A stretch of 32,000 bases of DNA from Candidatus Harpocratesius repetitus (GCA_021498095.1 JAIZWK010000001.1:3150001-3182000); one strand, 5' to 3'. Positions 5,736 through 24,502 are shown, counted from the stretch's first letter. A program made the numbers and translations. The notes: generated from the sequence alone by a model not told the origin.

Positions 5736-5771
5736 GGATAAGATATGCACTTTTATTTTTTACTAGTCAAA

Positions 5772-5849: not shown

Positions 5850-5875
5850 ATAGATCGATATGTAATTAATAGCCT

Positions 5876-6349
5876 TTATTTCGTTTTACTGGCTTTTTTC
5901 CGTGCTTTTGCGGCGGCTTTGGCGGTAGCTTCGATTTGAAATTGATGCAATTTTGAGGGTCCCAGTTTTCTGATTGTATTATCCATTTCTACTGCAAATT
6001 GTCGGAACCGCTCCCCTTCAGCGGCACTGACGAATATCATTCGAATGCGTTCACGTTCTAATCCGATGGTTTCTAATATATCCTGCAAATACGCAACTAA
6101 TTTCTGAGCATATTCGTTACCTTTGTTAAAATCGCATTCATGGATATGTCATCCACCAATAATGACTCCGTCGGCACCCCTATTGAAGGCGCGCATAACC
6201 ATATCCGCACTAACCCGAGCGGTGCATAATACCCTAACTGGTCGAATACTTGCAGGATATTGGGCACGAATTGTACCCGCCATATCCGCTGCTCCGTATC
6301 CTCATTTCCAGCACAAAAACGCCACTATACGGGGATTAAATTCGGACAT
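5876..6349 (-). CDS. mvhD: Methyl-viologen-reducing hydrogenase delta subunit (MvhD/VhuD), selenoprotein with 2 Sec (U16, U67), 157 aa
   Basis: ATG at 6349 after a GGAGG RBS. Translation MSEFNPRIVAFLCWK-U-GYGAADMAG...RVLCTARV...GADGVIIGG-U-HIHECDF...IGLERERIRMIFVSAAEG. TGA at 6304-6302 and 6151-6149 both sit at conserved [2Fe-2S] Cys positions. Confidence 0.93.
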
Positions 6350-6350
6350 T

Positions 6351-8333
6351 TTATGAACTGCCTCCTTCTTTTAAGGCATCTATTAAAATTGCATCAATTT
6401 GGCTTTCGTATTGCTCACCCCGATAATACCGAACAGTAATTGCTTCGCTGGGACAAACCGAGACACATAAACCACAACCCCGGCATAAAATATTATCCAC
6501 AATTGCTCCTTTCTCACGGCTAATCGTTATTGCATGATATGTACATGCATCAGCGCACATCCCACATCGAGCACATTTAGTTTCATCCGAAATTGCACGA
6601 ATGAGACTTATTCGATATTCACCATTAGAGAGCAGTTTTCCTATGGATGATGCTGCCCCTTTTGCTTGCATAATGGACTCTGAAATAGCTTTTGGTCCAT
6701 GACATGCTCCGGCGAGAACAATTCCCGGCACATCGGTATCTACAGTATTGAGACGTTGGTGAAACTCTTTTAAGAAGCCACTGGTATGTTTTGAAAGATT
6801 CATGACCTCATTTAACTTATCAAAGGTGCGTGAAGGCATCATTGCTGCCGACAACACAACCATATCAAATTCATATTCACGAATGGTTTTATCCGGACTA
6901 AGAGTATCTTCTAAGACCACCTTAAGATTCCCAGTACGAGAATCTTCCCGAATACGGCCCACTTTCGATCGGATAAATTTTACACCCTCTTTTCGAGATG
7001 CTGTGTAATACTCTTCATAACCTTTCCCAGCTGCTCGAATATCGATATAGGCCACTACCACTTCAATTGATGGATCATGACTTTTCACGAGTTTGGCATT
7101 TTTAATGCTCACCATACAGCATACTCCACTTGAACAGTAAACGTTTCGGTTTATATCACGTGAACCGACGCACTGAACAAATAATACACTTTCAGGAGGC
7201 TTTCCATCAGATGGACGATGGAGATGACCAACCACCGGTCCATTTGGAGCAAGCATCCTTTCTAATGAGAGCTGGGTTATGACATTTTCAAATTTACCAT
7301 AACCTAAATAGCCATACTCGGGTTCATATTCATCCCAACCAGTTGCCATGATAATCCCTCCGACTTTAACCTTAAATCGTGTATCTTTTTGGTCAAAGTT
7401 AACAGCATGCAATTCACACACGTTTTGACAATTACCACACTTAATACACGCATCCATATCGATTTGAGCTCGCATGGGCACCGCTTGTGAGAAAGCAAGA
7501 TAGATCGCCTGCTGAGGCTTCATTCCTTGATCAAAGCCACAAGGATTAGTCGCAGGACAAACTTCGAAACATGAACCACACCCATTACAATCGTCGTTAG
7601 TATACCGTGCATGTTGAAGAATCTCGATTTCGAAATTTCCAACATAACCTTGTACATCTACAACTTCAGAAAGGGTAAACAATTCAATATTCGGATTTCG
7701 TTGCGTTTCTAACATAACGGGCCCCAATATTCAAATACTACAATCATCTGTAGGGAAAGTACGATCCAACATGCTCATTTTGCCACCAATTGTCGGATTT
7801 TGTTCAACTAGATACACTCTATGCCCTTGATTGGCTAAATCAAGTGCAGATTGTAATCCAGCAACACCACCACCAATGACAAGAACTGCATCACTAACAG
7901 GAACTATTTTTTCAGGTACGACTTCCAAGCGTGCTGCTCGAGCCACACCTGCTCGAATTTGTTCTTTAGCAACGGTAGTAGCATCATCCCGATTTTTTTG
8001 ATGAACAAAACTGGAATGTTCTCGAATATTCACGAACTCCAGAAAGGACGGATCAAGCCCGCAGTCTTTCAAAACTGCTCGAAAAACTGGTTCATGCGTT
8101 TTCGGAGTGCATGCTGCAACGACAACACGATTAAGATCATAGTCTTCTACTGCTTTGCGAATGAAATCGGCTCCGGACGTTGTTCAAAGGGAGAGATATC
8201 GTTCCGCATAGTATACATTTGGAAGTGTTTTGGAAAATTCAACCACTTCGTCCATGTGTACAACGCCTGCAATATTAATTCCGCAATCACATGGAAAAAC
8301 TCCAATTCGTATTTCATTTGGGTCTTTAGACAT
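6351..8333 (-). CDS. hdrA: Heterodisulfide reductase subunit A (FAD/Fe-S), selenoprotein with 2 Sec (U50, U201), 660 aa
   Basis: One frame from ATG 8333 to TAA 6351 if TGA 8186-8184 (YLSL-U-TTSG) and TGA 7733-7731 (TFPTDDCSI-U-ILGP) are read through. Also has RIGVFPCDCGINI, AACTPKTHE, GGGVAG FAD motif, four CxxCxxCxxxC motifs and CVGSRD..YCS..VCCM. Confidence 0.93.
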
Positions 8334-8422
8334 AATCTGTCAAATCCAAGATTAAGAACTGGTGTTTTTTGGAATTGCTAGTTTGTAACTATTGGGTAGT
8401 ACGAAATTAATTGATGTTTTTA

Positions 8423-8490
8423 GTCCATCTATGGATTTCCCCGCTCCGGCTGAAATTGAAAGAGCGGGCTATCACTCCATATCATCGGAC
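8423..8490 (-). promoter_or_regulatory. K-turn/SECIS-core-like stem-loop upstream of hdrA
   Basis: Minus strand GTCC-GA-UGAU-AUGGA-GUGAUAG-CCCGCUC-loop-GAGCGGG-GAAA-UCCAU-AGAU-GGAC: three stacked helices with a UGA/GA core. Confidence 0.55.
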
Positions 8491-8679
8491 AGTAACTAAG
8501 TATGTGAAAGCGAAAATGAATAAGAATATTTTCCTTATGAGAGCACATGGAACTTGATCATCAAAATATTATTGATGATTTAAGGATAGATGAAAAATAC
8601 GATGGAAAATGCTTTTTTATAAATGTGGGATTATTTTCCCATAGAAATAACAAAAAATGCAACAATACGTCATCATTTA

Positions 8680-9123
8680 TTATTTCTTTGGAAGATGAAG
8701 GACTTTTTTCATTATTTCATCTGATTTTTGCAAATCTTGGAGAATTTCAGAAGAAATACTTGCCAAATCGGGTAAACAATCTTTAATTGTCGGGTAATTT
8801 ACAATTACAGGAATGAAATGCTTACGCATTCGAACTATATTTTGCCCCATGCGTTTAGCAACAAGAACTCTAACATCTTCCTGTTTCATTGTTTTCGAGA
8901 CATTAAAGGCTTTAATTGGATCACCATGCCGGCTCTCTTCTGGTGTTATATTTGGAATTGTCTTCAGTAATTTAATTTCATTATTTGTTAAATTCCACTT
9001 ATAAATCAGAAAAAACTTGCACGATCCGAAATGTTCGTCAGAAAATGTAGATTTATCATCAGTTCCGATGGCTACATTAATTATTTTGGTATTTTGTTCA
9101 GATTGTGGGTTAAAATCATTCAT
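8680..9123 (-). CDS. NifB/NifX (dinitrogenase Fe-Mo cofactor biosynthesis) family protein
   Basis: VAIGTDD.....EHFGSCKFFLIY, HG motif and VRVLVAKRMG match the NifX/NifB-like fold pattern. Confidence 0.8.
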   Translation of the reverse strand: MNDFNPQSEQNTKIINVAIGTDDKSTFSDEHFGSCKFFLIYKWNLTNNEIKLLKTIPNITPEESRHGDPIKAFNVSKTMKQEDVRVLVAKRMGQNIVRMRKHFIPVIVNYPTIKDCLPDLASISSEILQDLQKSDEIMKKVLHLPKK

Positions 9124-9208
9124 TTATTATTCTCTCAAATTTGTTATTTGCTTAATTTTCATTAATTATTATTTCCTGTACTTCAATGATTTTGTGACAA
9201 TTTTTTAC

Positions 9209-9224
9209 TGATCAAACTTGATCA
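9209..9224 (+). repeat. 16-bp repeat copy A (TGATCAAACTTGATCA), candidate right end of the element
   Basis: Exact reverse complement of 21798-21813. Adjacent hairpin AACCAG/CTGGTT at 9224-9243. Confidence 0.7.
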
Positions 9225-9381
9225 ACCAGTATCACTGCTGGTTATTTTTATTAATAGGTCCCTGCTATATAAATGTTATGAAAAAAATTGAAGCCGAATT
9301 GCCGCAATCATGCCTAAATACCACTGATTTTGAATAGTTAAAGCGGGAAAATATATTTTTCAATTAATCATATAAAATGAA

Positions 9382-12300
9382 TCATGGAGGTGGTTTTTCC
9401 TCCTCAATATTGGATGGTGGCGGCATATCCGATGCTTCATCTTCATGCTGCTGCGATTCTTGTTTGGATTTTTCATGCTCGGTTTTCTGACTAATGATTT
9501 GATTCCATTTTTTAAGCCAACCTGCTTTGCTAAGTTTTATTTTACTTCTTTTATCCTTTTCTACAAATGAGTAAAATGTGTGAATTTGCTTAAATGTTTG
9601 ATAGATCGGCTCAAATGGTGAATCAACCGTAATTGGATCGGTGAATTTTACTTTATCTGCTTCATTCTTGAGATAATTGAAAATGTCTTTTAGTTCCATA
9701 TTTTTTACTTTGGATGCATTGTAAATAATACCTGATTTTGCGGCATTTAAAACGGTTTCCCGCTCCTTGTTAGATAATTCACGCCAATCAAACCATTCCA
9801 GCGAACCGTATGGATGATAACTGCCGAAGGATGTATCCAAAACCTTAAGCAAACCGCTTAAAAGTTTATTTGTCCACTTTTTCATAGATTTTGAATTTCT
9901 TTTTCCTGTATTTTTGTATCTATCAATCTGCAAATTTACCGTTTCTTCAAAATATTTCAATTTATTATATCTGGCAATGTTGTAAGCGCCGTTAACATCT
10001 CGATCGACGATAAATTTTTCTGCTTTTGGTTTTTCATCATTTTCAGATTTAACTATATTTTCATAAAGAAACGTATTTCCTTGAGAAGCATGGATAAAGT
10101 CAATATTAGTATTATTTTCTTTAGAATTAAAGTATTCATTACATAATTCGATTATTTTTGTAGGAACCGAAAAATTATACTCGTATTTATCAGGATTTTT
10201 CGAAATAAAGGAAGCAAATTCATTAAAATTGGCAGTATATCCCGGTCCTTTTACAGGAAATATCCTATTTTTATGAAAAACCATGAGAAATCCTTTTTTA
10301 CCTTCGGTTCCGCTTATGCTCAGTTTTGAAGTATAGGCTGCAGGAACATATCTCACATTTATTCCCTTCATGCTTCCCATTTCTTGGGTGTAATCAGGTA
10401 GTAAGCCGCGAAGCCATCGGGCTTTTTCAAGAGCAAATGATTCACCTTTGGTCGCTTTATACTTCCATAAGCTTTCAAAATTGATTCGGGAATGCATTTT
10501 GAAAATATTTTTGATAAATGATGAATTAGGATTGTTTTCGTCTATGAAAAATTGAGATCCAACAGAAGGCCAAAGATTCTGTATATACGATATTACCGAT
10601 TGCTTTAAATCTTCATTTTGCAGACAGTGATTAATTGATGCTTCAGAAGAACGGAAAACAGCACGGGACAAATTATGGGCGATGTTTCGGTTTAATCTGG
10701 TTGATTTACTATTTATTGAGCGCTTCATGTATGATTTTTTAAGTAAATATTTTGAAGCCCTAACACATTTTTTAACTTTTTTAACTTTAAACCGATTTTC
10801 TACACGATTTTTTTTCTGCTGAAATAGTGCAGCCGTTTTTACAGTATTATTTGAATGTTTTATCAAATTTCTCTGTTCAAAATTCTTTCTGGCTGTATAT
10901 TCTGATAGAGAGATTTCGGTATTATTTAGAGTTTTAATTTTAATTTTATCGGTTGATAAAAATTTATTCTGTGGTTGAAAATAGATCTGCAGTTCATAAG
11001 GGCTACGCAGTCCAAGATCAACTCCTGTCGAAATATAGCCGGGCATTTTTGAATGAATACGCGGCCGCAAGAATTTAAATGGATGATAAATGCGAATATC
11101 TCCGTTAGGTTTTACCTGCAAAAGAGGTGTCGAAAAAGGGGCAAAACCATAAAAATTACCTTCGACAAGTGGATTTTCTGAAGATTTGGAAGGCAGTTTA
11201 TTCTTTCCCAAAGCATTAATCAAAATTTTAGGATAAATTTTTGAAATGAATGAGTAAAATTTCCAAGTTTCAGTTGTTGCCTTAGAATTTAAAAAAGGTT
11301 TTGGAAAAATAATTAGTTTTTGCCAAGCGCTTTTCTCTTTTTCATCTTTAATTTTATCGGTTTCTTTCAGAAATTTATTACCTAAATAATTGACATAGTC
11401 AATGAAAGATAAGTTTTGAACATTTTTATCACCAGGAAATACTTTAAGAAATTTCTGCAATTCCGGAACGATAATATCTTTATATTTGATTAAAACTTCT
11501 TTTTTGTATTTATAGGGCGCTTTGGGATCGATTAAGCCCTGCATGATTCGAAAATTGATTAAAAGTGGTTGAATTCGATTTAGTAAAACTTTGCTTGAAA
11601 AATTGGATTTATTGATTATTTCGGATAATTCTTTAATAATTTGCTTTAATGCTTGAAAATTAATCAAATACTGCTGAATAGAATTATCTAGTTTTGAATC
11701 CAGTATGTCGAAATTTTGATTTTTAAAGTTTATATAATCGCTATATTTTATTTTCAAGATTTTTTTTCCAAGATTGCTTAATACATTATTTATTTTCTTT
11801 TCCGTTTCATCCAAATTTTGTTTTTTAGCTTTAAAACTTTTTTTAATGCTTGAAATTTTCTTTTTAACTTTATTTTTTAAATTTTCAAATTTTTTATTTT
11901 GTTTTTCAATTTTATCAATTTCTTTAGAAAGATCTACTTTTTCGAATGGATCTAATGATTTTAGTAAAGAGATCGGCATTAATAACGGATGGGATTGTTC
12001 TAAACTTTTTACGGGAAAAATCATGGGCATTAAATTCTTTATTGTAGTGCTTATTTCTTCAATTTTTGTGAATTTTACCAAAAAAGGCACACCAGTTCTT
12101 TTCTGGTGAAAATAAAACCATTTAATATGTTTTTCGTTAACTACCATTTCTTTAACTTGAGGAAGATTTAGATTGAAGAATTTATCCCATTCTTCCTGCA
12201 GATGAAAATCTCCTTTGGATATATTGATGGGTGAACATAATATTAGATAATCACGATTTGGTCCAGGCTCAGTTTTTCCTTTTGGTAATAAATAAAGCAG

Positions 12301-15300
12301 ATAGTAACGAAGAAGTTCATAAGGCTCTGATGCATTTTTTACCTGTATTAAGAAGTATGAAGAATCATCTTGGGGTAACCGCACAGTTGCGCTGAAATCT
12401 TTGTAGACGGGCCATTGATCGGGAGGATACAAAATATATTTTGCATAAATTTGGAAATAACTGAGATCTGAAGCGGGAGGTCCTTTTTGAACAACTTCAC
12501 GCATCATTGTAAATAATTCTTTGATAGGATCGGTATTTTTTGGTTTTGGATTGTCTAAATAATTGTCTTCATATTCTTGTTTCAGTTCAACCGCCAAATT
12601 TTTATAATCTTCAGTTAGGTCGGGTAATTTAGTAAATTCACCATCTCTTTTGAATTTCGAAAGCAGTTTTTTCAAATAATTAAATGACAGAGTGATATCT
12701 TCCGTCGATTCAACCGAAAATTGGAACACGGTTTGAAGTATTGATATAATTTTTATTAGAGTGTCTGCCTTATTTGTCTGTATCTTTGTTGGTGTTGTCT
12801 GCCATTCTTCAGCATTATTAGATTTTTCTAAATGACTCTTTAACAATTCTTGAACATCGTTTTTAGATTTTGATCTGAAAACTAGCCTAGAAAGATTTAA
12901 TGCGGGAAATTTACCAAACGAATTATTTTTATCACCCTTTTCAGCCTTTTTTTCATAGAACCAGACTGTTGGGGATATTGACAAGAGATTTAATCCTTTA
13001 ACACCGTATTTTTGAATCCAACCTGTAAAGCTGGGATTATTTTCTAAAGATTTGGTGGATTCATAAGAAAGCGATTTGATTGGATTCTTCTTTTCGATAT
13101 TGTTATTAACATAATTAGTTTTTGCAGATCTTTTAGGTTTGAAACTTGGATTTAACCACAAATTCTTCCATTTTATCAATGAATTAGTTGAAACAGGTGG
13201 AAAATAATTTTCATTTTGGAAATTTAATTCAAACTTTTTTAGTATCCGCATCATTCGCGCTTCTGTAATCCACATTTTCCACATTTTTCCAATTTTTGGA
13301 GAATATGCAAATTTATTGGGATGATTAATCTGCTGAATTACTGCATATGCACTCAAATTTAATTCTTGAGTAAATATCCCGCATACATTGGTATATATTC
13401 TGTTCCAGCTGAGTTTTTCGGTATATGAGAGTTGATTACATTTGGTATTAATAGAATCAATAAATGAATTCGCTTCTGAAATATCCTTATTATAATCCTG
13501 CAGTATTTGTTCTTCATTAAGTGAATTTGGAGCGAAAATACCCGATTTGCCGAACACTAAAAATGTTTCCTTTAAATTTCCAAATATTTTGATAAAAGAA
13601 AATTTAGTTGAAGTTTCATCATTTGTTAATACTTTGTTTGGAATTTGAGATAAATAGGTTTGAATTCGTTTCACCGCTTCAGCTCTATGTAAAAACCATT
13701 CAGATCGGGCAATTTTACATGTTCGTTCATCAATATAATAATGGGATGATTTTCTTTTTATATTCCAAGAACCTTTTCTTGCAGGAGTGAACAGTGCTTT
13801 CAATTCATTTGAAATATTTTTCTTAAATTTATTAAATTGTTCTGCAATATTTATTTTGTTTAATTTTAATAAATTGAGATTTTTTGAATACTCTGAAAGA
13901 TAATTTTGATAAGATTCGCTGTATGTTAAATTATGCCTTATAAAATTGATAAATCTGTAAAAATGTACGTATTGACAATAAATATCCGAAGAATATTTAG
14001 TATAATGGTCTTTTAAGACATCTGCCATTGATTTTAGCACTAAATGGTTCAGTTTTAACTCAAATGAGTAATAATCACTGTTAATTTTCAGCTGAGCAAT
14101 ATTTGAAACGGCGGTGGCAGAAATCTCTTTCACAAAATCTGCCAATTTGTAATTTTTATTCCGCAATTCTTGAGGATCGGTGGATTTAAAGGTGGAGGGT
14201 AATTGAAACACCGTATCTTTAGGATCTGACAAATTATCTTTTTGGTTTTGTTCTTTTTCGTTTTCATCCTCGTCTTCAGTAGATCCATTATCAAAATCAA
14301 TTTTATCAAAATTGCTTAATGTATTCAGTGTTTTGTTAAATGCATCGAACGATCCATCTTCTAAAGCCGCTTGAATCAATTTTTCAAGATGATCAAATCT
14401 TTCTTCCGCTGCACTTGAAACTGCATTATTATTTTGAGAATTTTCTGATCTATAATGCAAATTATCAAAAACCAAGCTCGAATCCGCATTTTCAAATAGA
14501 ATCTGAAATTCTTCGCTATATTTTTCAATCATATCTTTATATAATTGAATTTGGGAATATTTTCCAGATTCAGAAATCGTAATCCTGCAGGGAGGTTCTT
14601 TGTCAAGTTCTTCGCATGATTTTTGGGCGTCTTCTTGAGTATAGATGTAATACGATCGCTTGCTGTGCTGATTTTTTGCAAAATATCCGAAAATTGAATC
14701 TTTCCAAGCAGTTCGAAAAGCTCGTAAAATCATATCCGCAAATTTTTTCTGATTTTCCTTTAATATTCTTTTTCTAAAATCACCATTTTCTAATCCGTTT
14801 ATTTCAGTTTGAAAAATGCCGAATACTTTTAAAGCAAACCTGTTAACTTGTGCGAGTATTATTTCTGCTTCTGCTTTTAGAGGTTCTAAACAAGCTTCCA
14901 ACCTTTTAACATGCCATTCTGCATACTCTTGTGTTTTTTTATTATCTGGAGCAGTATCTATAGGTAGTTCAGAACGCTTTGCTTTATTTATTTTTATACC
15001 CAAATATTTGTCTGAAGGTCGGATCAGCGGTGAGGCAAACAGCAGATCAATAAAATTTCGAATGGTCGAAAAGAGCGGGGTTTTAAATCTTAATTTATTA
15101 AATGATTCTTGATATTCCTGCAGTGCATCCGCCAAATTCTTTCGTTTTTCATAATATTTTTGAGGATTTTTTAAATATTCTATTGTATCGCTGAAATTAG
15201 ATAAATCTATGTTATAATATTGATAACTTAAATGTTTTATAAATTCTTTCTTTTCTTTTTCTGTAAAAGACAATTTTTGAAGAGAATTTAATGTAAAATT

Positions 15301-18210
15301 TGATAATCCTTTCTTTTTATCATGATCACTAGATCTTAATATTAAACTCGGAAATTCGAATATATTCCCGACCTTTAAACTTAAAGTACGGGTTTGAATG
15401 GTCCACGTGATTGGCAGTGCCTGCGGTGTCCAGTTAAATGGCGGTTTTAAAACGTCTCGAACGGCTGGATCGATAATATGTATATAATAATTCTTCAAAT
15501 TAGAAATGTTGTATAGTTGTTTTAGGGTGATCTCCGAAGCTTTAGGATGAAGAACCATTCGATTTGAAGGTTTGTGATAAATAAATATGTCTACGGCTTT
15601 ATGGGGTGGAAGTCTGAGTGCTTGTCGAACTTCATTTGAATTAAAAAATTCTTTTGCCGATCGATTTCCCGAGAAAATGCCTGAACCTTTATCAATTATC
15701 ATTTGACTGATTTTTTTGCACGCTTGATAAAAATCTTTAGAAGATCTATCATAATGTGGAAATATTGAAAAAATTAAATCATGGTGTTCATAAAGATGGC
15801 TGAATTTTCGAACTAGCACAGGTGAATACATGAATCTTTTTTGATCGATATATGATAAGTCATTTTGCAATACTAACCAATGATTTCCTCCTTTTTTACA
15901 TAATTCATTAATCTGATATAATGATTTATTATTTAGATCGACCTGTTTAATAGTGTATTCTGCAGTATCATTCAAAAAACGCTTTAAATAAAAATTAATC
16001 TGAGGTTTAGTTATTCGCATACCCACTTTGAAAGTTTTCATTAAGTCTCGTATTAAGTGGGTGCGATTCCAAGCAGGGTGTCCGAGTTTAGGTGTTAATT
16101 TTACCAGAGAATATTTAATGGTACTTCCTAACATTAATGGTTGAAGCAGCAGTTGAATGTTAGGTAGTTGGATAAATTCTTGAAATTTCATATCTTTCGT
16201 ATCTGGATGAAATCCTGTTCTACGTAAGGTTCGTATAAATTTCTCAAAAAGAGAAGGATTAGTATAAGGTGAATCTAGAAGCACTGCATTAAATTTCCGT
16301 GATTTAGGAGGATAAAAAAGGTTTTCTTTCCTCAATTTGTAATGTTTTATGAATGAAATATCATGAGTGAATGGTTTTGGGCCTTTACCAAAGTGTTCCC
16401 AAATTGCTCGTGCTTGAGGTGCTAATTCGGGTAATATTTCATAGTTGATTAAATCTATTGTGAGAAAAATTACAATTATCATTTGAGAATAAAAGACAAA
16501 ATCACGGAATAGTTTATATGGAAGATGCATATAATGTAGTGGTATATGGTCAGAATATGATAATTCGTAGTGTTTTCTTACAAAAAACCGCATTTTTCCA
16601 ACATCAGGATAAATAAGACGACTCATTGGTCCATTTACATAATCCCTCCATTCTTGGCTGTATAAAGCTTTACCTTCATAAGGATTCGGTTTCCCTTGAA
16701 TTCGAGCGAAGATTCCTTTAATAAATTTCATAAACAACCGTTCTGATTCCCATTTAACCAATTTCCAATCCACATATTTTTTTTCGAAATAGCGGATAAT
16801 TTGCTGTACATCTTCTTTAGAATACTTCGCTTCAGGTTGAACCGCTTGAAAAATACTGCACGGATATATTTTGAAGGGAATCTTTTTGGCGCGCAGAAAT
16901 CTGATTATGGTTGGAATCACATTAGGCATATTCGGATTTGTCATATCTAATTTCGGTTTTATACGGAAAGCATTCCAACCATGGCGAATTCCAATATGTA
17001 ATGGGGAAAAACACGTTAAATAAAAAGGATCTGAATCGGCGTATTTATCTGCCCAATCTTGCATAATCCATTTATTAAGAAAAATTTCATGATCTCTTGG
17101 AACATAAAATCGAATTAACCACGGTGGATTATAGTATCCATGAAATTTCTTGGAAAGAAACTCTACATCTATCGAATATTCTTGTTGAATTTTGAAATTT
17201 TTTTCATTAAAAACTTGAATATGTTGAGTTCTACCTCTTCCCCATGTATATTTACCACATTCAATTTCCTGCTCAATTTTTATCCATTTCAAAGTTCGCT
17301 TTTCTTCCTTTTTAGTAAGACGGGGATAATAAAGATCCGGGATGTCAAACTTTTTTCCTAAACGGAAATCAAGATACATTCGATAAACATGCTCTAATTT
17401 ATACGGAATAATGGGAATTTCGGAATCATTTTTCGCTAAAATTCGGGTATTATCATCTTTAATCCATTTTTTTAGTTTTTGTTCTTTCGCATTCAAAATT
17501 CGTTTTAACTTAGAAGGAATCCGTTTATCTCCCGGTTTTCGAAAGTTACGTTTAGACATGACGGTGGGAGGACGGGACTTGGGCATCATCCTTTTTCTTC
17601 TTCTGTTCCAATATGATTCCAAAGCATCTCGAGAAGAAAAAACTCGATATTTAAAGACTTGCTTCTTAATAGAACGTTCCAACCAGTATCTTTTTTTAGG
17701 GGAAAGCCCAAATTTGCGCATATAAGGCCCGTGAAAATGATTTTTCAATTGTCGAGTTATCTTTTTACGTTTTTCTAATTGTGCCCTTTCAAAATGTTTT
17801 TCTTCCAACCATCTCCGATTGGTATGTTTTCCAGGTTTTTTCCAATCTGGATGACGAGGGTTAATTAAATCACCGTATACATTGTAAACTCTACATCTTT
17901 GGGAATTTTTTGTCAGTTTATCTGGACTTCTTCGTTTGCATATTTTTAAATGGGGGGTAGGTAACATAGAAAGAGGTAACTTTTTCTTTAATGTATAATA
18001 GTCTATTTTTTCCCTATCCGGAATAGTTCTTTCTATTAATCCATAAGGAGTTTTTTTAATAACCGTCTTTTCATTCGGGCTGGGAGGGACTAACAAACGT
18101 GCAATATATTGAAATATATGATCTTTTTTTTCGATTTTTTTAATAAATGGTTCTTCAGTCATTTTTAGCTTCCCTACGCGTATTTCTTTATTGGTTGAAG
18201 TATTTACCAA
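9382..18210 (-). CDS. Giant (~2,926-2,942 aa) protein with a C-terminal TnpB/Cas12-like RuvC nuclease domain
   Basis: RuvC-I GVDLGLRSP (D2398, nt 11019-11017), RuvC-II INFESL (E2579, nt 10476-10474), GINVRYVPAAYTSK, RuvC-III DRDVNGAYNIAR (D2738, nt 9999-9997). The track start is TTG 18210; ATG 18162 after AGGGAAG is a likelier start. Confidence 0.85.
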   Translation of the reverse strand: MVNTSTNKEIRVGKLKMTEEPFIKKIEKKDHIFQYIARLLVPPSPNEKTVIKKTPYGLIERTIPDREKIDYYTLKKKLPLSMLPTPHLKICKRRSPDKLTKNSQRCRVYNVYGDLINPRHPDWKKPGKHTNRRWLEEKHFERAQLEKRKKITRQLKNHFHGPYMRKFGLSPKKRYWLERSIKKQVFKYRVFSSRDALESYWNRRRKRMMPKSRPPTVMSKRNFRKPGDKRIPSKLKRILNAKEQKLKKWIKDDNTRILAKNDSEIPIIPYKLEHVYRMYLDFRLGKKFDIPDLYYPRLTKKEEKRTLKWIKIEQEIECGKYTWGRGRTQHIQVFNEKNFKIQQEYSIDVEFLSKKFHGYYNPPWLIRFYVPRDHEIFLNKWIMQDWADKYADSDPFYLTCFSPLHIGIRHGWNAFRIKPKLDMTNPNMPNVIPTIIRFLRAKKIPFKIYPCSIFQAVQPEAKYSKEDVQQIIRYFEKKYVDWKLVKWESERLFMKFIKGIFARIQGKPNPYEGKALYSQEWRDYVNGPMSRLIYPDVGKMRFFVRKHYELSYSDHIPLHYMHLPYKLFRDFVFYSQMIIVIFLTIDLINYEILPELAPQARAIWEHFGKGPKPFTHDISFIKHYKLRKENLFYPPKSRKFNAVLLDSPYTNPSLFEKFIRTLRRTGFHPDTKDMKFQEFIQLPNIQLLLQPLMLGSTIKYSLVKLTPKLGHPAWNRTHLIRDLMKTFKVGMRITKPQINFYLKRFLNDTAEYTIKQVDLNNKSLYQINELCKKGGNHWLVLQNDLSYIDQKRFMYSPVLVRKFSHLYEHHDLIFSIFPHYDRSSKDFYQACKKISQMIIDKGSGIFSGNRSAKEFFNSNEVRQALRLPPHKAVDIFIYHKPSNRMVLHPKASEITLKQLYNISNLKNYYIHIIDPAVRDVLKPPFNWTPQALPITWTIQTRTLSLKVGNIFEFPSLILRSSDHDKKKGLSNFTLNSLQKLSFTEKEKKEFIKHLSYQYYNIDLSNFSDTIEYLKNPQKYYEKRKNLADALQEYQESFNKLRFKTPLFSTIRNFIDLLFASPLIRPSDKYLGIKINKAKRSELPIDTAPDNKKTQEYAEWHVKRLEACLEPLKAEAEIILAQVNRFALKVFGIFQTEINGLENGDFRKRILKENQKKFADMILRAFRTAWKDSIFGYFAKNQHSKRSYYIYTQEDAQKSCEELDKEPPCRITISESGKYSQIQLYKDMIEKYSEEFQILFENADSSLVFDNLHYRSENSQNNNAVSSAAEERFDHLEKLIQAALEDGSFDAFNKTLNTLSNFDKIDFDNGSTEDEDENEKEQNQKDNLSDPKDTVFQLPSTFKSTDPQELRNKNYKLADFVKEISATAVSNIAQLKINSDYYSFELKLNHLVLKSMADVLKDHYTKYSSDIYCQYVHFYRFINFIRHNLTYSESYQNYLSEYSKNLNLLKLNKINIAEQFNKFKKNISNELKALFTPARKGSWNIKRKSSHYYIDERTCKIARSEWFLHRAEAVKRIQTYLSQIPNKVLTNDETSTKFSFIKIFGNLKETFLVFGKSGIFAPNSLNEEQILQDYNKDISEANSFIDSINTKCNQLSYTEKLSWNRIYTNVCGIFTQELNLSAYAVIQQINHPNKFAYSPKIGKMWKMWITEARMMRILKKFELNFQNENYFPPVSTNSLIKWKNLWLNPSFKPKRSAKTNYVNNNIEKKNPIKSLSYESTKSLENNPSFTGWIQKYGVKGLNLLSISPTVWFYEKKAEKGDKNNSFGKFPALNLSRLVFRSKSKNDVQELLKSHLEKSNNAEEWQTTPTKIQTNKADTLIKIISILQTVFQFSVESTEDITLSFNYLKKLLSKFKRDGEFTKLPDLTEDYKNLAVELKQEYEDNYLDNPKPKNTDPIKELFTMMREVVQKGPPASDLSYFQIYAKYILYPPDQWPVYKDFSATVRLPQDDSSYFLIQVKNASEPYELLRYYLLYLLPKGKTEPGPNRDYLILCSPINISKGDFHLQEEWDKFFNLNLPQVKEMVVNEKHIKWFYFHQKRTGVPFLVKFTKIEEISTTIKNLMPMIFPVKSLEQSHPLLMPISLLKSLDPFEKVDLSKEIDKIEKQNKKFENLKNKVKKKISSIKKSFKAKKQNLDETEKKINNVLSNLGKKILKIKYSDYINFKNQNFDILDSKLDNSIQQYLINFQALKQIIKELSEIINKSNFSSKVLLNRIQPLLINFRIMQGLIDPKAPYKYKKEVLIKYKDIIVPELQKFLKVFPGDKNVQNLSFIDYVNYLGNKFLKETDKIKDEKEKSAWQKLIIFPKPFLNSKATTETWKFYSFISKIYPKILINALGKNKLPSKSSENPLVEGNFYGFAPFSTPLLQVKPNGDIRIYHPFKFLRPRIHSKMPGYISTGVDLGLRSPYELQIYFQPQNKFLSTDKIKIKTLNNTEISLSEYTARKNFEQRNLIKHSNNTVKTAALFQQKKNRVENRFKVKKVKKCVRASKYLLKKSYMKRSINSKSTRLNRNIAHNLSRAVFRSSEASINHCLQNEDLKQSVISYIQNLWPSVGSQFFIDENNPNSSFIKNIFKMHSRINFESLWKYKATKGESFALEKARWLRGLLPDYTQEMGSMKGINVRYVPAAYTSKLSISGTEGKKGFLMVFHKNRIFPVKGPGYTANFNEFASFISKNPDKYEYNFSVPTKIIELCNEYFNSKENNTNIDFIHASQGNTFLYENIVKSENDEKPKAEKFIVDRDVNGAYNIARYNKLKYFEETVNLQIDRYKNTGKRNSKSMKKWTNKLLSGLLKVLDTSFGSYHPYGSLEWFDWRELSNKERETVLNAAKSGIIYNASKVKNMELKDIFNYLKNEADKVKFTDPITVDSPFEPIYQTFKQIHTFYSFVEKDKRSKIKLSKAGWLKKWNQIISQKTEHEKSKQESQQHEDEASDMPPPSNIEEEKPPP

Positions 18211-19408
18211 AATATTTTAAAAATAAACTATACTGAGAATTTTTAATATCACCATAAGAATGATTATATTCAGAAATAGTAAATTCTAATTTGTTTTTAT
18301 TAGTTATATTAAAATTTCTGATAGCAGACAAGATATGTTCCTGAGTTACTTTTTCAGATTTTTGTTCAATAGCGTTTATTTTTGCCAATTGAATTAGGTG
18401 TTTTAGATCCGCTCCAGAAAATCCATCCGTTTCTAGTGAAATTTCATGAATATTGACTTCCTTTGGAACATCTATAAGCATTTGTTCAATGATCAATGAT
18501 CTCGAAGATTGATCTGGTTGAGGGATGAAAACTTGCATACTTAATCTTCCAGGTCTAAGTAAGGCTGAGTCAACCAGATCCTTACGATTTGTGGCACCAA
18601 TAACAAATATATAATTATTAATAATTTCGTTATATTCGAGATTATTTTTTTCATGTGAATTTTCTAAATCAATTTCATTAATTTTTTGTTCATCAATGGT
18701 TGAAGATCTATTTTGATTGGGTAATCTGTTCATTTCAATTAGCAATTGGGTAAACATACGATCAATTTCAGCTGATTCTCTACTTTGACCCCTTTTTGGA
18801 CTTAGTGATTCTATTTCATCTATAAATAAAACTATAGGAGCATTGTTCCGGCAGTATCTAAAGACCCGGGAAATATTTCGGGCTGATTCTCCTACAAGAG
18901 AATTTACAATATCACTAGGGGTTATTACCAGTAAAGGTAATTTCATGTAAGCTGCTAAAGCAGAAGCCAACATGGTTTTCCCGCAACCTGGCGGACCTTC
19001 GAATAATATGCCTGTAGGAAGTTGCAATTTTAATTTTGAAGCAATTTTCCTATATTCGGGATTGGAGATAGGAAGACAAATTTCTTTGATCAATCGATTT
19101 TTAATTGTTTCAATTCCTGCAATATCATTCATTTGGTAAGGATAAGGTTTAGTGACTCCATCATACAATATACCTATTGGTGGTAGATCTTTTTGGGAGA
19201 TTATCTCTATAATTTCATCGTGCTTTTCGTCCACTAAAACTAAATCATGAATTTTTACAAGAATCTTTTCAGGTTTTGGAAATGCAATCCGAATTCCGTT
19301 CAATTCAACTATAATTTTTGTTTTAAACAATTCAATTACTGTTCCAACAGATGTAGGAACAGAAGCTGGATTGCTCTGCAAACGCTGGAAAAATTTTTTC
19401 ATCATCAT
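18188..19408 (-). CDS. AAA+ ATPase, PAN/Rpt/CDC48-like single AAA module with an OB-like N-domain
   Basis: Walker A GPPGCGKT, Walker B LFIDE, SRH ATNRKDLVDSALLRPGRL, GFSGADL. The N-terminal VGTVIEL..KIIVE...LVLVD..EIIEII..LP resembles the PAN OB domain. Confidence 0.85.
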   Translation of the reverse strand: MMMKKFFQRLQSNPASVPTSVGTVIELFKTKIIVELNGIRIAFPKPEKILVKIHDLVLVDEKHDEIIEIISQKDLPPIGILYDGVTKPYPYQMNDIAGIETIKNRLIKEICLPISNPEYRKIASKLKLQLPTGILFEGPPGCGKTMLASALAAYMKLPLLVITPSDIVNSLVGESARNISRVFRYCRNNAPIVLFIDEIESLSPKRGQSRESAEIDRMFTQLLIEMNRLPNQNRSSTIDEQKINEIDLENSHEKNNLEYNEIINNYIFVIGATNRKDLVDSALLRPGRLSMQVFIPQPDQSSRSLIIEQMLIDVPKEVNIHEISLETDGFSGADLKHLIQLAKINAIEQKSEKVTQEHILSAIRNFNITNKNKLEFTISEYNHSYGDIKNSQYSLFLKYFGKYFNQ

Positions 19409-19676
19409 ATACTAGATGCGACACTCTGAAAACCTTTAAATATGGTCTTCAAAAAGTGCAAAAATTCCTGTCAAAGTTAGAAAAAATATTACAATTTATA
19501 TATTTTTGATTTACAAAAACAAGGTTGCATTATTTAATCACTCCAAAATGTGGTTCAAAAATTCTTGATTTAAATATGTTTACTATTCAAATATATTGGG
19601 CAGTAATAAAGTGCCGATTGTAAAATAAAGAAGGTTAGAGAATAAGCATATTAACTGATCTATACTAATTCTCTCA

Positions 19677-19771
19677 GCTGACTCAAGAATTATGAAATAG
19701 ATCGTAAAAATGGAATATATGAACCCTAATATCTCGTTAAGTGCGAGATTTTCGTTTCATATTGAGTTAGC
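19677..19771 (+). ncRNA. Candidate structured non-coding RNA inside the element
   Basis: Closing stem GCTGACTCAA (19677-86)/TTGAGTTAGC (19762-71) with one G.U, stacked TATGAAA (19691-97)/TTTCATA (19755-61), and inner hairpin ATCTCG/CGAGAT (19731-49). Confidence 0.4.
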
Positions 19772-19892
19772 ATAAAAAAACAGTGGATATTAGGTCTATT
19801 ATATCAAAAATTCGAATTATAGAACCATTTACAGGAATTTTATAGATCAAAACAGCGAAAAACTTAAATTATCTGACTCCAATTATTATTTC

Positions 19893-20915
19893 ATGACCGT
19901 TCTACTCAGATCAAGAAAAAAGTTGACCTGTTGTTCGGATCCAAAAATTAAAAATGTCGATGGATTTCGCACATGTGTTAATTGTGGAACAGTCGTGGAA
20001 AGAATACAAATAGCTGAACAAAATTTTTCACAATATGAAATTCTTCAGAAATTTTCTCAAAAAAAGCGAAAGGTTTCTTTAGTAGAAAAGAAAATTTTAG
20101 AATTTAATCCTGTAATACCACGAACATTACAAATGTATCAATCGATTCCGAACAGAAGAATTTTGTCAGGTTATCCTGCGAAATGTATAATTGCAGCTAT
20201 CGGCTTTTATCAATGCGAACATATATTTTTCAGAGAACAAAATTGGTCAATCAAAGATCTTTTTCTAATCAGCCAAATTTACGGAAAAATTGGAGGAAAA
20301 GGACCAATTGCTCAAAATTTTATGTATCAAATTCTGAGCAATTTACAGAGCCAAAATACGAGCAAAAATGAAAAGAAATATGCTCTAAGAATATTGAGAC
20401 ATTATTACAAGAGATTACTTCTGCTCAGCAAAGATAATAACGAATTAAGGCATTTTGTAGATCTTTCCCAAAATCTAATTACCTCTAAAAATTTCAGTTT
20501 TTTTATTGGAATTGCAGAAAAAATTATAAATAAACCAATTCCGAATGCCCTTGGTAAAAAAGAGATTTCTAATTCAATTTTTTATAAAATTAAACGTTGG
20601 ATTTCGCTTAAAACCCAAGAGTTTCGAATTTTTTTCTTGAAAATTAAGGATGTACTTAAAAATGTCACTTGCAAACATACTGGGGAGCAAACTTGGCATT
20701 ATAACAATTTTGTCAATAATTGCTCTAGTTACCATTTTTGTAGTAATAAAGCGGAAAAGAAAAGCTCTAAACCTGAACTTCTTGTCCAGAAAAAAAGAAG
20801 CACCTCGACTACTATCACAAAATTTAAATTCTTCTCGCATGGCTCAAGCAAGATCAGGTATACAAATTATATCGAAGCGCGTTTTGCGCCGCAGAATGTA
20901 ATAGGAGGTTCATAG
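19893..20915 (+). CDS. TFIIB/TFB-like protein (Zn ribbon plus partial cyclin-like repeat)
   Basis: N-terminal CCSDP...DGFRTCVNCGTV matches the TFIIB zinc ribbon. ILSGYPAKCIIAAIGFYQC resembles the cyclin-fold G....iaAa.lY.aC motif. The rest is divergent. Confidence 0.55.
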   Translation: MTVLLRSRKKLTCCSDPKIKNVDGFRTCVNCGTVVERIQIAEQNFSQYEILQKFSQKKRKVSLVEKKILEFNPVIPRTLQMYQSIPNRRILSGYPAKCIIAAIGFYQCEHIFFREQNWSIKDLFLISQIYGKIGGKGPIAQNFMYQILSNLQSQNTSKNEKKYALRILRHYYKRLLLLSKDNNELRHFVDLSQNLITSKNFSFFIGIAEKIINKPIPNALGKKEISNSIFYKIKRWISLKTQEFRIFFLKIKDVLKNVTCKHTGEQTWHYNNFVNNCSSYHFCSNKAEKKSSKPELLVQKKRSTSTTITKFKFFSHGSSKIRYTNYIEARFAPQNVIGGS

Positions 20916-20917
20916 AG

Positions 20918-21325
20918 ATGTTAAATATTGGGGCATTAGTGTCCATGGCTGGCGGCGGCAATCCGATAGTTCCTATAGTTCTATTGGGAGGATTAGAAAT
21001 TGGAGGATTTCTGCTATTCAAGAAGATTAATCCTTTAAATAAAGTAAAAGCTTTATTTAGCAGAATGAAAGAAAAGGCAAATAAACGCCGAGAAAAAAGA
21101 AAAGAAGAATTCAGAAAATTCGGAGCACGTACAAAAAGTGATCTGGCAAAAGCTAAAAAAGCGCCCGCAGTTGATACAATTTGCCCGAAAACGACGCAAT
21201 CAGCGCCATCAAATCCGTCACCAGCTGTTCCTCCAAAGAAGTATTCAATCCACGCTCCACCTCGATTATCGGCACATCGTAAATCCCACAAACATATTCC
21301 AGAAATGGAAACCCGAATCTTGTGA
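20918..21325 (+). CDS. Small hypothetical protein with an N-terminal hydrophobic helix and a basic segment
   Basis: Starts 2 nt after the TFB-like stop. IVPIVLLGGLEIGGFLLF is followed by a K/R-rich stretch. The last 173 nt overlap tnpA on the opposite strand. Confidence 0.45.
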   Translation: MLNIGALVSMAGGGNPIVPIVLLGGLEIGGFLLFKKINPLNKVKALFSRMKEKANKRREKRKEEFRKFGARTKSDLAKAKKAPAVDTICPKTTQSAPSNPSPAVPPKKYSIHAPPRLSAHRKSHKHIPEMETRIL

Positions 21326-21755
21326 GCCGATCCTTATATGCAATCAGCACCCGTGCCACCTTCCTCTGCTCAATTTGCTTCAACAGCCGCCACAATCCTC
21401 TGCGCATCGGATTCAAGCCTGAACCGTATTCTTTAATAATTTTTGCAGGTGATTCATCAGTAAAATGCTTTTTGTGATATTTTTTCAATCGTTCGACCTG
21501 TCTGTCAAGATTTCCATCTTTCTTTTGTTTGGCGGATGAGACTCTGGCATAAATATAGGTCGATTTTACAGTTTCTTCTGCTGGTTGGCACGGTAGATTA
21601 ACCGATTCGGGCAGAAAATCCACCAATTGTTCCCATGAATACCGTCGGTGATTTCCAAATGTCCTTTTAGGAACGAGGTATCCTTTTTTATCCCATCTGC
21701 GTAGAGTTGCAGGAGTAACTCCAAGAAGGCGTGAAGTTTCGGAAATAGTCAGCAT
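21153..21755 (-). CDS. tnpA: IS607-family transposase TnpA (MerR-type HTH plus serine recombinase)
   Basis: MLTISETSRLLGVTPATLRRWDKKG...GNHRRY HTH; catalytic YARVSS; EYGSGLN; KDRLTRFGF; C-helix LVTDLMALIASFSGKLY. Confidence 0.95.
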   Translation of the reverse strand: MLTISETSRLLGVTPATLRRWDKKGYLVPKRTFGNHRRYSWEQLVDFLPESVNLPCQPAEETVKSTYIYARVSSAKQKKDGNLDRQVERLKKYHKKHFTDESPAKIIKEYGSGLNPMRRGLWRLLKQIEQRKVARVLIAYKDRLTRFGFPFLEYVCGIYDVPIIEVERGLNTSLEEQLVTDLMALIASFSGKLYQLRALF

Positions 21756-21775
21756 AGAATTAAATTTGGGGAAGA

Positions 21776-21785
21776 TATATATAAA
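21776..21785 (-). promoter_or_regulatory. Archaeal TATA box for tnpA
   Basis: TTTATATATA on the minus strand, 20 nt upstream of the tnpA ATG, consistent with a leaderless archaeal transcript. Confidence 0.55.
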
Positions 21786-21797
21786 TTAGGCGATCAA

Positions 21798-21813
21798 TGA
21801 TCAAGTTTGATCA
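21798..21813 (+). repeat. 16-bp repeat copy B (TGATCAAGTTTGATCA), candidate left end / TnpA-binding site
   Basis: Reverse complement of 9209-9224. Flanked by an extra half-site CGATCA (21791-96) and a degenerate copy TGATAAGTTTTATGATA (21830-46). Confidence 0.7.
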
Positions 21814-21856
21814 AAAATTTTTTTGCTGTTGATAAGTTTTATGATAGTCAATTCTT

Positions 21857-22654
21857 TTATTTAAATAATTTCTCAATATAATTAAAGAGAAAATCAAATG
21901 GAACACCTCTTGAACTAATATTCCAGATTTTTTTTTTAGGATCAACTGATCGAATTACTAAATATCGATCATTTTCAAGATATTTTTCGGTTCGTTGAAA
22001 TAGTTGAAAATTTGAAAATCTCAATTCAGATTCAATTTTTAACTGTAAAGCAGGAAAAATTATATCATCATGATTTTTTAAAATTGGTTCATGATTTTTC
22101 ATAGTTCTTTCTATAATGATTTTCATCTCAGGAAATTGAGAATAAATTTTTTCTTCTTCATCTATAAAAGTTAAATCGAAATTGGAAACTTCCCAAAATA
22201 ATGGAGATTTTTTTTCGTTTTGAAAACAATTAGGATAGCAATATGAGTAGAATCTTTTTTCCATGATTTCTTCAATTAATTTAGAAAGTTGGTTAGTTTT
22301 CTGAGATATTTCTTTCCATTCTTCATTTGTAAAATCAATTCCCCGGATATTTATATCAAAATAATACCCATTTTGACCAAATCCTAAATTTATATGATCA
22401 ATCATTTGATCAAGCAAGTTATCATTCATTTTTATGAATTCAAAGCGAAATGTGGGATGAATTCTTCCAAGAACTCTATTTTGAGCAGGTTTTTTATAAT
22501 AAGGTATATCCGTCTGGCAATTTAAATTAGTTTCAATAATGGATTTAATGTCCTTCAAATTATTTCCAAATTCTTCAATTTTATATTGAGGTGAATGCCA
22601 TACTTTTATTTTTCCAACAATAAAAGGACTTTCTGATAGAATTTTCATATTCAT
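21857..22654 (-). CDS. Hypothetical protein
   Basis: 265-aa open frame with no recognised motif. Confidence 0.6.
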   Translation of the reverse strand: MNMKILSESPFIVGKIKVWHSPQYKIEEFGNNLKDIKSIIETNLNCQTDIPYYKKPAQNRVLGRIHPTFRFEFIKMNDNLLDQMIDHINLGFGQNGYYFDINIRGIDFTNEEWKEISQKTNQLSKLIEEIMEKRFYSYCYPNCFQNEKKSPLFWEVSNFDLTFIDEEEKIYSQFPEMKIIIERTMKNHEPILKNHDDIIFPALQLKIESELRFSNFQLFQRTEKYLENDRYLVIRSVDPKKKIWNISSRGVPFDFLFNYIEKLFK

Positions 22655-22731
22655 TTCTCTTTATATGTTTTTTTTGGAAATTAGATTTAATTAAATTTAA
22701 TTGTTGATAATTGTATAAAATTAAAATAATA

Positions 22732-23526
22732 TCATGCAACTAGTGTAGCAGATGCAGTTTCATTAATTTCCTTATTTTTTAAGTTTTTAGATTCATTATG
22801 ATCATTCAAATAGATAATTTTATCAAACATTTCATCAAATTCTTCATTTAGAAATTTTATGTCGGATAATTGATTCGAATTATATCTTAATTTGTACATC
22901 TTTTTATGCATAAATGGGCGAATAATATTTTCGTTTTTATTGTAAAATTCTATTTTATGGGGGTTTTCAATAAATTTTGCCATTTCTTCGTTAATCTGAG
23001 AAAGAAGACCTTGTGCTTTAAATTTACCTTTTAAACTTAAGTAAACAGCAGTAATTTTTTGTTTGCTATTCAAAACTCGAATATATTCGGATTTTTTTAA
23101 TTGAGATATTATTTTTTTCCTTTGATCAGATTTAATTTGAGATTTAGGCATAGAATTAAATTTTGAATAAGCAATACAATTTACATTATAACTATTTCTG
23201 AAATCAATAATAGAGTTTAAATCAATTCTATTTTTTGAATCAAATGCTTTTTCTAAAAATAAATAAATAATAAGCTGGTTTTCTAAATTAAAATTACTGA
23301 AATATTTCGAGTGTGTGCAGATGAAAAATTCTTTTTTTTGCTTGTTAATCTCAATTTCAGGTGCAAATTTTTGAATAAAATAAATAAGATTTAAATAATC
23401 TTGAGTCGTTTTCCAATGAATATTTGACTTTTCTTTTAATGAATTAATGTTGAATGCTTTTCCTCTTCGATAACCATTCAATACATTTAAGATATCTGCA
23501 ACAATGTCAATTGGTTTTCTTTTCAT
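22732..23526 (-). CDS. Winged-helix DNA-binding protein (possibly tandem wHTH)
   Basis: RKPIDIVADILNVL...NINSLKEKSNIHWKTTQDYLNLI resembles archaeal wHTH regulators. IISQLKKSEYI...VYLSLKGK is a second wHTH-like segment. Confidence 0.55.
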   Translation of the reverse strand: MKRKPIDIVADILNVLNGYRRGKAFNINSLKEKSNIHWKTTQDYLNLIYFIQKFAPEIEINKQKKEFFICTHSKYFSNFNLENQLIIYLFLEKAFDSKNRIDLNSIIDFRNSYNVNCIAYSKFNSMPKSQIKSDQRKKIISQLKKSEYIRVLNSKQKITAVYLSLKGKFKAQGLLSQINEEMAKFIENPHKIEFYNKNENIIRPFMHKKMYKLRYNSNQLSDIKFLNEEFDEMFDKIIYLNDHNESKNLKNKEINETASATLVA

Positions 23527-23817
23527 CTTAGATTCATCTACTTTTTAATATTAAATAAAAAAGGAATTTCATTTTGACAAATTCCTCAAATGCTAAATAA
23601 AAAAAGTGTAGTAAATAAATATATCTTCATTATAATATATTTTATTAAACTAATTTAAGATTATTCATTATAATGAAATATTTTTAAATTTATTAATAAA
23701 TCCCTAAAAATTCAATTTCCAATTTTTGATTAAAATTACTCTTCTATTTTTATAAAAAACCAATATCCAATCTTTTGTTAAAAAAGATAAAGTAGATCTC
23801 ATCAATAGCAGATAAAA

Positions 23818-24474: not shown

Positions 24475-24502
24475 ATAATTTTTGTTTTAAATCAGATTTT
24501 CT

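Follow-up and report, generated by a model that had tools for sequence, protein, structure and literature searches.

Do an IS607-type transposase gene, tnpA, and a co-oriented gene for a RuvC protein of 2,942 residues that lie close together in one archaeal genome belong to a single transposon? The question is raised by a 32,000-nt stretch of DNA of Candidatus Harpocratesius repetitus (G000:C1:3150001-3182000; hereafter the window), which is part of a closed 4.36-Mb genome. Coordinates below are those of the window unless they are marked "gen", which denotes positions in that genome. IS607 elements are about 2 kb long and carry a tnpB gene of about 400 aa immediately downstream of tnpA, and both Cas12 and the eukaryotic Fanzor descend from TnpB. 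To our knowledge, the known TnpB members are small. An earlier note on this DNA, made from the sequence alone, had claimed that tnpA and a co-oriented RuvC gene are about 3 kb apart and that the RuvC protein is about seven times larger than canonical TnpB. Both claims hold: the open reading frame (ORF) map gives a gap of 2.9 kb, and the 2,942-aa ORF has a TnpB/Cas12-type RuvC module at its C-terminus. Our preferred reading, to which we assign a probability of about 0.6, is that positions 9194-21840 form a composite member of an IS607-like family. It would combine a left end (LE) carrying TnpA, a block of four genes (small membrane protein, TFB-like protein, AAA+ ATPase and giant RuvC protein) and a conserved right end (RE), and we infer that it transposes and works in an RNA-guided manner.

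A matched pair of family ends

The 12.6-kb set lies between an LE and an RE that form a matched pair and belong to a multicopy IS607-like family. The bounds of the element (9194-21840, 12.65 kb) were set by comparison with other copies in the same genome, which were found by a blastn search with positions 8501-22700. The LE (21756-21840) comprises the tnpA promoter region, a palindrome at 21798-21813 and a conserved 27-bp outer part; more than 20 genome copies all end at 21840, after ...GATAAGTTTT, and their flanks are unrelated beyond this point. At the RE, homology with at least 15 other copies begins at about 9194, again with unrelated flanks. This terminus (9194-9208, minus strand) consists of an A-run and the terminal bases and reads, in the sense of the giant gene, ...GTAAAAAATTGTCAC up to the flank. 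The exact 16-bp inverted repeat that the earlier note had described as bracketing the set is real (9209-9224 and 21798-21813), and its match count was reached by none of 100 shuffles. However, it is subterminal, because the homology among copies runs on to about 9194 and 21840, which are the true ends. The repeat is itself near-palindromic (7+2+7, TGATCAA-N2-TTGATCA), and the pattern GATCA-N4-TGATC has 35 sites in the window genome, against one for the reversed control. No target duplication was visible in the flanks of four two-ended copies; defined ends common to several copies and the lack of target duplication are IS607-type features, and both are present here.

The tnpA gene (21153-21755, minus strand) is intact and encodes an IS607-family serine recombinase of 200 aa with Resolvase and MerR domains. 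The protein scores 166 bits with the NCBIfam IS607 transposase model NF033518 (cut-off 110) and has the YARVSS motif.

Two-ended derivatives occur elsewhere in the genome. At gen 3286568-3287132, window positions 21840..21557 are fused directly to 9486..9194 at 93-98% identity, and the final 35 codons of the giant gene are retained at 97.6% identity. Two further two-ended loci, gen 1753119-1754101 and 2352678-2353646, have identical internal breakpoints, and this derivative was therefore copied. About eight solo mini-copies of 59 bp consist of the outer RE (15 bp), one TGATCA-N4-TGATCA palindrome and the outer LE (27 bp); they may be minimal derivatives resembling miniature inverted-repeat transposable elements, or recombination products. 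Solo loci include gen 893568-893623, 1956444-1956496, 2473388-2473444 and 3058572-3058633. The idea that the 16-bp palindromes are att-like crossover sites, with the 59-bp solos as empty targets, was not retained, since the two ends have different central dinucleotides, which also vary from copy to copy.

The giant RuvC protein

The giant ORF (9382-18210, minus strand) probably starts at an ATG at 18162, which lies 16 codons into the ORF and 25 nt past the stop of the AAA+ gene, so that the two genes probably do not overlap. Its TnpB/Cas12-type RuvC module (aa ~2350-2790; 9841-11163, minus strand) has motifs that could be read directly, namely GVDLG (D2398), INFESL (E2579), VPAAYTSK and DRDVNGAYNIA (D2738), and includes a degenerate, Cys-less TNB region. 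The D/E/D triad falls in invariant or near-invariant columns of an alignment of 11 C-terminal modules. Among 11 family members, the Pfam model Cas12f1-like_TNB matches 7 (best 4.6e-12); C2c1_RuvC-like matches two members of the giant family and OrfB_IS605 one. The family profile matched Cas12b in the PDB (9kln, E 8e-4). With the TNB model, the window giant scores 17-23 bits, under the cut-off of 26.3, whereas relatives score above it. By sequence, the giant is a protein of the TnpB/Cas12 RuvC superfamily whose catalytic triad is intact.

A search of 1.84 billion representative proteins with aa 2250-2942 of the giant returned only 16 matches, among them proteins of 2,981, 3,741, 2,743 and 3,222 aa. 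Genomes of the same family add a 2,090-aa ORF (G011), an ORF of at least 3,352 aa (G008) and a 964-aa ORF (G005), and in a search of 400 genomes of the phylum, strong giant matches were confined to the window's own family. The 2,981-aa protein (P0004), which comes from another sample, is 42% identical to the window giant over its full length.

Ahead of the RuvC module, a conserved N-terminal module (aa ~230-950; 15361-17523, minus strand) is common to P0004, P0008, the G008 protein and an 801-aa ORF of G011. The first ~2,300 residues of the giant gave no match in Pfam, PDB profile, atlas or fold searches. The AF2 model of aa 200-1000 had a predicted local distance difference test (pLDDT) score of 49.5, and VIA-align searches with the N-terminal module gave Z values of at most 5.2, with helical hairpins only and nothing reliable. 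In the closed genome G011, the giant is split into the 801-aa ORF and the 2,090-aa RuvC ORF (L021, G011:C1:4055000-4074999, 8407-17347); the 801-aa ORF lies just upstream of the RuvC ORF and is homologous to aa ~600-900 of the window giant.

Partner genes in the block

The gene directly upstream of the giant gene and co-oriented with it (18188-19408, minus strand) encodes a 406-aa AAA+ ATPase of the single-domain classic clade (Pfam AAA 5e-33, and AAA_lid_3). The earlier note had called it PAN-like. PAN is indeed its best NCBIfam subfamily, but the score is 183 bits against a cut-off of 500, and its closest solved relatives are the D2 domains of Cdc48/p97/VAT. Because the alignment begins at position 50 of the PAN profile, the protein would lack the PAN coiled coil; its C-terminus is ...YFNQ and not HbYX.

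Between the AAA+ gene and tnpA lies a divergent TFB/TFIIB-like gene (19893-20915, plus strand; 340 aa), in keeping with the TFB-like gene that had been placed between tnpA and the giant. It encodes a Zn ribbon and at least one cyclin-like repeat. The ribbon could be read directly as CC-x2-P-x6-G-x3-C-x2-CG, and the TFB paralogues of the host have a similar one. An hhalign comparison with 10 host TFBs gave a probability of 71.5% (E 3.6e-5) over one cyclin-like repeat, where TFB proteins have two, and the atlas feature matches were to TFIIB/BRF families at 0.90. The protein has no Pfam match (TFIIB was not reached at E 0.01), and a word-index homology search recovered only the protein itself. 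Its identity as a TFB/TFIIB is therefore tentative, though reasonable. With PF00382, about ten ORFs of 305-467 aa in the window genome are marked as TFB/TFIIB paralogues, a large number for an archaeon.

The small membrane ORF reported between tnpA and the giant is also present (20918-21325, plus strand). It encodes a transmembrane (TM) segment and a basic part. Its homologous portion covers 20918-21158, and the ORF reads on antisense to tnpA to 21325. The first ~80 residues are homologous to 110-aa and 100-aa genes of the corresponding blocks in two relatives (L024 and L025). The structured intergenic RNA of the earlier note (19630-19775) was not borne out: its fold has z = -2.3, 5 of 200 shuffles fold equally well, and the only relative that shares this intergenic region does not conserve that part. 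Rfam and tRNA scans of the whole window gave no match.

Conservation in relatives

In L024, the locus of P0004, the small TM gene is followed by a TFB-like gene (38% identity) and then, divergently, by the AAA+ gene (46-48%) and the giant gene. In L025, the locus of P0008 in an NCBI assembly, the AAA+ gene is directly upstream of the giant gene, and a small TM homologue of the 100-aa type stands at the start of a gene module. The co-occurrence of the four genes on which the earlier note had relied is thus found in part: AAA+ and giant genes occur together in two independent relatives, one of which also has the TFB-like and small TM genes, but tnpA does not accompany them. Other genes lie upstream of the giant homologue in P0006, P0014, G011 and G005. 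The 4.66-kb contig G005:C261 has an LE-like palindrome at one end, an RE palindrome at the other and the gene for the 964-aa RuvC protein between them. In L024, L025 and L046, the contig breaks off at the RE or close to it. The comparison indicates that the giant gene with its RE is an old unit and that the AAA+, TFB-like and TM genes are its conserved partners in the nearest relatives.

In L054/L024 and in L025, a shared module of about eight genes adjoins the TFB-like/AAA/giant block. It includes a gene for a 2,422-aa protein with weak C1q/DUF2793 matches and an ORF of at least 880 aa with faint Big_3_3/Y_Y_Y matches. With PHROGs, it gave only weak tape-measure and virion-protein matches, and it may be virus-like or surface-protein cargo.

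The right end and a candidate RNA

The 3' flank of the giant or RuvC gene could be read in the window and in five homologues from other genera and from metagenomes (L024, L025, L047, G011 and G005), and in all six the same RE architecture was found 140-235 nt past the stop, the distance in the window being about 170 nt. Its five components are a CAGTGG/CAGCGA...AGG block, a TATA-like box, a hairpin of 5-7 bp, the palindrome GATCA-N4-TGATC and an A-run. In L024, the contig stops precisely at the terminal bases seen at window position 9194. In the window, a hairpin with a stem of 6-7 bp (9224-9243, minus strand) abuts the palindrome. Its sequence is variable in copies and relatives while its pairing is kept, the stems being AACCAG/CTGGTT, AACCAC/GTGGTT, AACCAA/TTGGTT, GGCCAC/GTGGCT, ATCCAT/ATGGAT and AAGGTA/TACCTT. 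Only 2.4% of random 28-mers of the window genome form a comparable hairpin. Since the hairpins of G011, L047 and G005 were out of register in the MAFFT alignment, each copy was folded separately. The TATA-like box (TTTATATA; 9265-9273, minus strand), a putative promoter element, reads outward and lies about 25-45 nt upstream of the hairpin; an AT-rich box of this kind is in the same relative place in seven of eight aligned copies and in L024, L025 and G011.

The motif CAGTGG-N3-TTAGG, found in the RE region at 9313-9326 (minus strand), has 9 exact sites in 4.36 Mb. Seven are in RE regions and one is at 19781-19794 (plus strand), 99 nt upstream of the ATG of the TFB-like gene, where L024 has an identical 15-nt block in the same orientation and equally far from the ATG. 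Related versions occur downstream of the giants in L024, L025, G011 and L047. By these matches, the motif links the RE with the putative internal promoter region. The ninth site (gen 994921-994934) lies outside the right ends of the insertion sequence family and outside the window element. As for the palindrome, G011 has only 2 in 4.3 Mb, one of them at the RE spot of its giant, and G005 and G008 have 11 and 7, respectively, against none for the controls.

Proposed mechanism and the evidence against it

The proposed mechanism is drawn by analogy with established IS607 and TnpB biology, in which TnpA moves IS607 elements through a circular intermediate. TnpA dimers would bind the GATCA-N4-TGATC palindromes, one per end, before cutting out the unit and integrating it with no duplication of the target. 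The giant protein would take the place of TnpB in the element; no canonical TnpB was found in the window genome. Its RuvC module would probably use a short RNA from the RE, made up of the hairpin, the palindrome hairpin and the A-run, with the flank as guide, and RNA-directed DNA cutting would keep or spread the transposon, as TnpB does. The AAA+ ATPase, presumably co-transcribed, might act on the giant protein or on its target complex, and the TFB-like factor could drive element-specific promoters marked by CAGTGG-N3-TTAGG. From the same analogy we infer both the RNA guidance and the mobility of the full unit.

Several observations weigh against this reading. In the giant protein, the CxxC zinc ligands are replaced in the window and in P0004, P0006 and P0008 (G011 and G008 retain them), the AF2 model of the RuvC module (aa 2330-2800) is poor with a pLDDT of 55, and the Cas12 proteins in the top rows of a Foldseek search with this module are non-significant (E > 0.2). 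At the RE, conserved structure is confined to the two terminal hairpins, with no long scaffold resembling omega-RNA, and the palindrome and hairpin, instead of acting as RNA, could be sites in DNA that proteins bind. The full-length 12.6-kb unit is single-copy in the genome.

The linkage of tnpA to the block also counts against it. The earlier note's view of a cargo transposon with an expanded effector agrees with the family ends, the two-ended derivatives and the TnpB-superfamily giant, but tnpA is not beside giants elsewhere: none was found near them in L024 (a 27.5-kb contig), L025, L046, L047, G005:C261 or G011. The genome of G011 has no tnpA match at all, and those of G005 and G008 have only broken matches with in-frame stops, on other contigs. 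The earlier note had taken tnpA insertion independent of the block as a reason to give up its proposal, and this is partly what is seen: the window genome has about 17 tnpA copies or fragments (70-97% aa identity), most of which carry an unrelated cassette, A-B-C-D, instead of the giant block. All copies part from the window at 21159, in the last tnpA codon (blastn), and on the window side this junction truncates the 3' end of the small TM gene. Because the copies diverge at 21159 and the TM gene is cut there, the tnpA-LE module and the giant block were probably joined by rearrangement, and the present linkage of tnpA to the block looks like a secondary join. On the supporting side, decayed remains of the 3' part of the giant gene lie downstream of tnpA copies. 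In four copies, D is followed by the same 37-nt spacer and then by a decayed giant homologue from aa 2419 on; in one copy, D is followed by a piece matching approximately aa 1896-1963 of the giant.

A wider claim can be put forward only tentatively. The locus might represent a transposon-borne RNA-guided class in Lokiarchaeia, built from a TnpB of 2,000-3,700 residues, an AAA+ remodeller, a TFB-like factor and a two-hairpin RE RNA made from an element-specific promoter. We regard such a class as conceivable and, on balance, doubtful.

Alternative explanations

The main rival takes the locus as a chimeric scar, in which a larger element, virus-like or integrative, left the block behind as an immobile remnant and the tnpA-LE part recombined in later. 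The truncation of the small TM gene at 21159 and the prevalence of other cargo behind tnpA fit this explanation, as does the position of the block in L024 and L025, which lack tnpA and pair it with the module of about eight genes with weak tape-measure and virion matches. However, in G011, L047 and G005 the RE and its palindrome are kept beside giants without the module, and G005:C261 is two-ended. Moreover, a two-ended deletion derivative with 3' codons of the giant gene stands at a second locus, and contig breaks at or near the RE in L024, L025 and L046 are expected of a repeated end. We therefore consider this origin rather unlikely. The same holds, to the same degree, for its extension, by which the family borrowed its RE from the 3' region of the giant gene and the function of the giant is unrelated to transposition, for example in the biology of a virus or element.

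A second alternative is that the giant and the AAA+ ATPase act as a domesticated or defence effector, in host or element defence or regulation, guide-dependent or not, and have lost any role in transposition. The AAA+ protein resembles the IetA/IteA anti-phage ATPases (PADLOC 1.4e-40, NCBIfam 1e-38), and G011 has a giant without any tnpA match. However, the IetA likeness is generic to classic AAA+ proteins, among which PAN, Cdc48 and FtsH score equally or higher. No PADLOC defence model matches the giant, its gene remains linked to an end of the transposon type, and decayed copies are found within copies of the insertion sequence. This explanation appears improbable.

Least credible by far is a polymorphic-toxin-like giant with a C-terminal nuclease tip, whose scattered C-terminal fragments would be orphan toxin cassettes: a very large protein with a C-terminal nuclease module and several partial copies of aa 2419-2942 elsewhere in the genome would suit it, but stop codons abound in the fragments, which are located within insertion sequence copies that share one breakpoint, the RuvC tip is the conserved and not the variable part of the family, and secretion or immunity features were not seen.

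Relation to known systems

Like IS607 elements, the composite element has a TnpA that passes the equivalog cut-off, a co-oriented RuvC gene downstream of tnpA and beside the RE, no target duplication, and ends common to many copies. Unlike them, it measures 12.6 kb instead of about 2 kb, its "tnpB" encodes 2,942 aa and is separated from tnpA by 2.9 kb, and three extra conserved genes fill the space between. It also has one near-perfect palindrome per end, and the linkage to tnpA is not kept in relatives.

With TnpB, Cas12 and Fanzor, the giant protein shares a split RuvC D/E/D, a YTS motif and a probable TNB-type segment between RuvC-II and RuvC-III, and the locus likewise has conserved structure in the stretch that separates the 3' end of the gene from the transposon end. 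In contrast to these proteins, the giant has about 2,300 extra N-terminal residues, has lost its zinc ligands and has a conserved AAA+ partner. Its conserved hairpins span about 50 nt, compared with 100-250 nt for an omega-RNA scaffold, and no CRISPR array is present here.

Enlarged TnpBs also occur in the same archaeal order, where an IS607 tnpA directly precedes a TNB-bearing protein of 733-786 aa in two of three loci inspected. The tnpA products of G036:C29 and G019:C22 are 35-40% identical to that of the window, but their TnpBs have a distant RuvC module, a 3' flank without the palindrome and no AAA+ gene, and are not giant. The arrangement with tnpA directly ahead of these genes fits an IS607 background for enlarged TnpBs. 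The units are located at L056 (G036:C29), 1771-4827, and L058 (G019:C22), 6111-9064.

In the aloposons of Heimdallarchaeum, the giants Otus and Ephialtes stand in tandem, the ATPase is of the MinD/ParA type, and tRNA genes are the sites of integration (PMC8813620). Like the window locus, these mobile elements are found in Asgard archaea and have an ATPase gene ahead of giant genes, which encode 3,000-6,000 aa in the aloposons (PMC8813620). In contrast, the window has one giant, no tRNA, a classic AAA+ protein and IS607 ends. Membership of the aloposons was rejected on account of the single giant, the lack of a tRNA in the window and an AAA+ protein that is classic and not of the ParA/MinD type (features as given in PMC8813620). 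The terms RuvC, TnpB and IS607 are absent from the main text of the aloposon paper (PMC8813620). A survey of TnpB and Cas12 mentions cargo genes and Asgard Cas1-linked TnpBs, and no giant forms are described in its passages that were searched (PMC10691335). In literature on giant TnpB, Asgard IS607 and TnpB with AAA+, which was covered incompletely, no description of the giant family was found.

The locus matters in several respects. A TnpB-type catalytic core with an intact triad stands at the end of a protein of about 2,900 residues, with larger or split versions of 2,090-3,741 aa in relatives. The protein has an AAA+ ATPase as a fixed partner, joined in some members of the family by a TFB paralogue, and this suggests an effector complex in the archaeal lineage nearest to eukaryotes. 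The conserved RE motif is a candidate for a very short guide-RNA scaffold, and a single closed genome, with its many decayed and mini copies, offers a natural series for studying IS607 ends.

Flanking region and the A-B-C-D cassette

An empty-site comparison was made with two genomes of the same genus, in which the contigs break on both sides, at about window positions 8540 and 24512. In the same-genus genome G002, no match was found before about 24512. Just outside the LE, positions 21857-24500 have a very low GC content (21-27%) and contain ORFs of 265 and 264 aa, to which no family was assigned.

The A-B-C-D cassette encodes proteins of about 400 aa (A), about 180 aa (B), about 450-520 aa (C) and about 315-400 aa (D), none of which has a Pfam or PADLOC match. 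It is the dominant cargo of the insertion sequence family in the window genome and often stands behind an IS607 tnpA. Its B-C-D part is present in about 18 copies in the genome at 83-94% aa identity, and a second variant has 35-40% identity. Examples of the cassette are found in L010 (G000:C1:3260000-3268500, 2519-6691), L009, L011 and L014.

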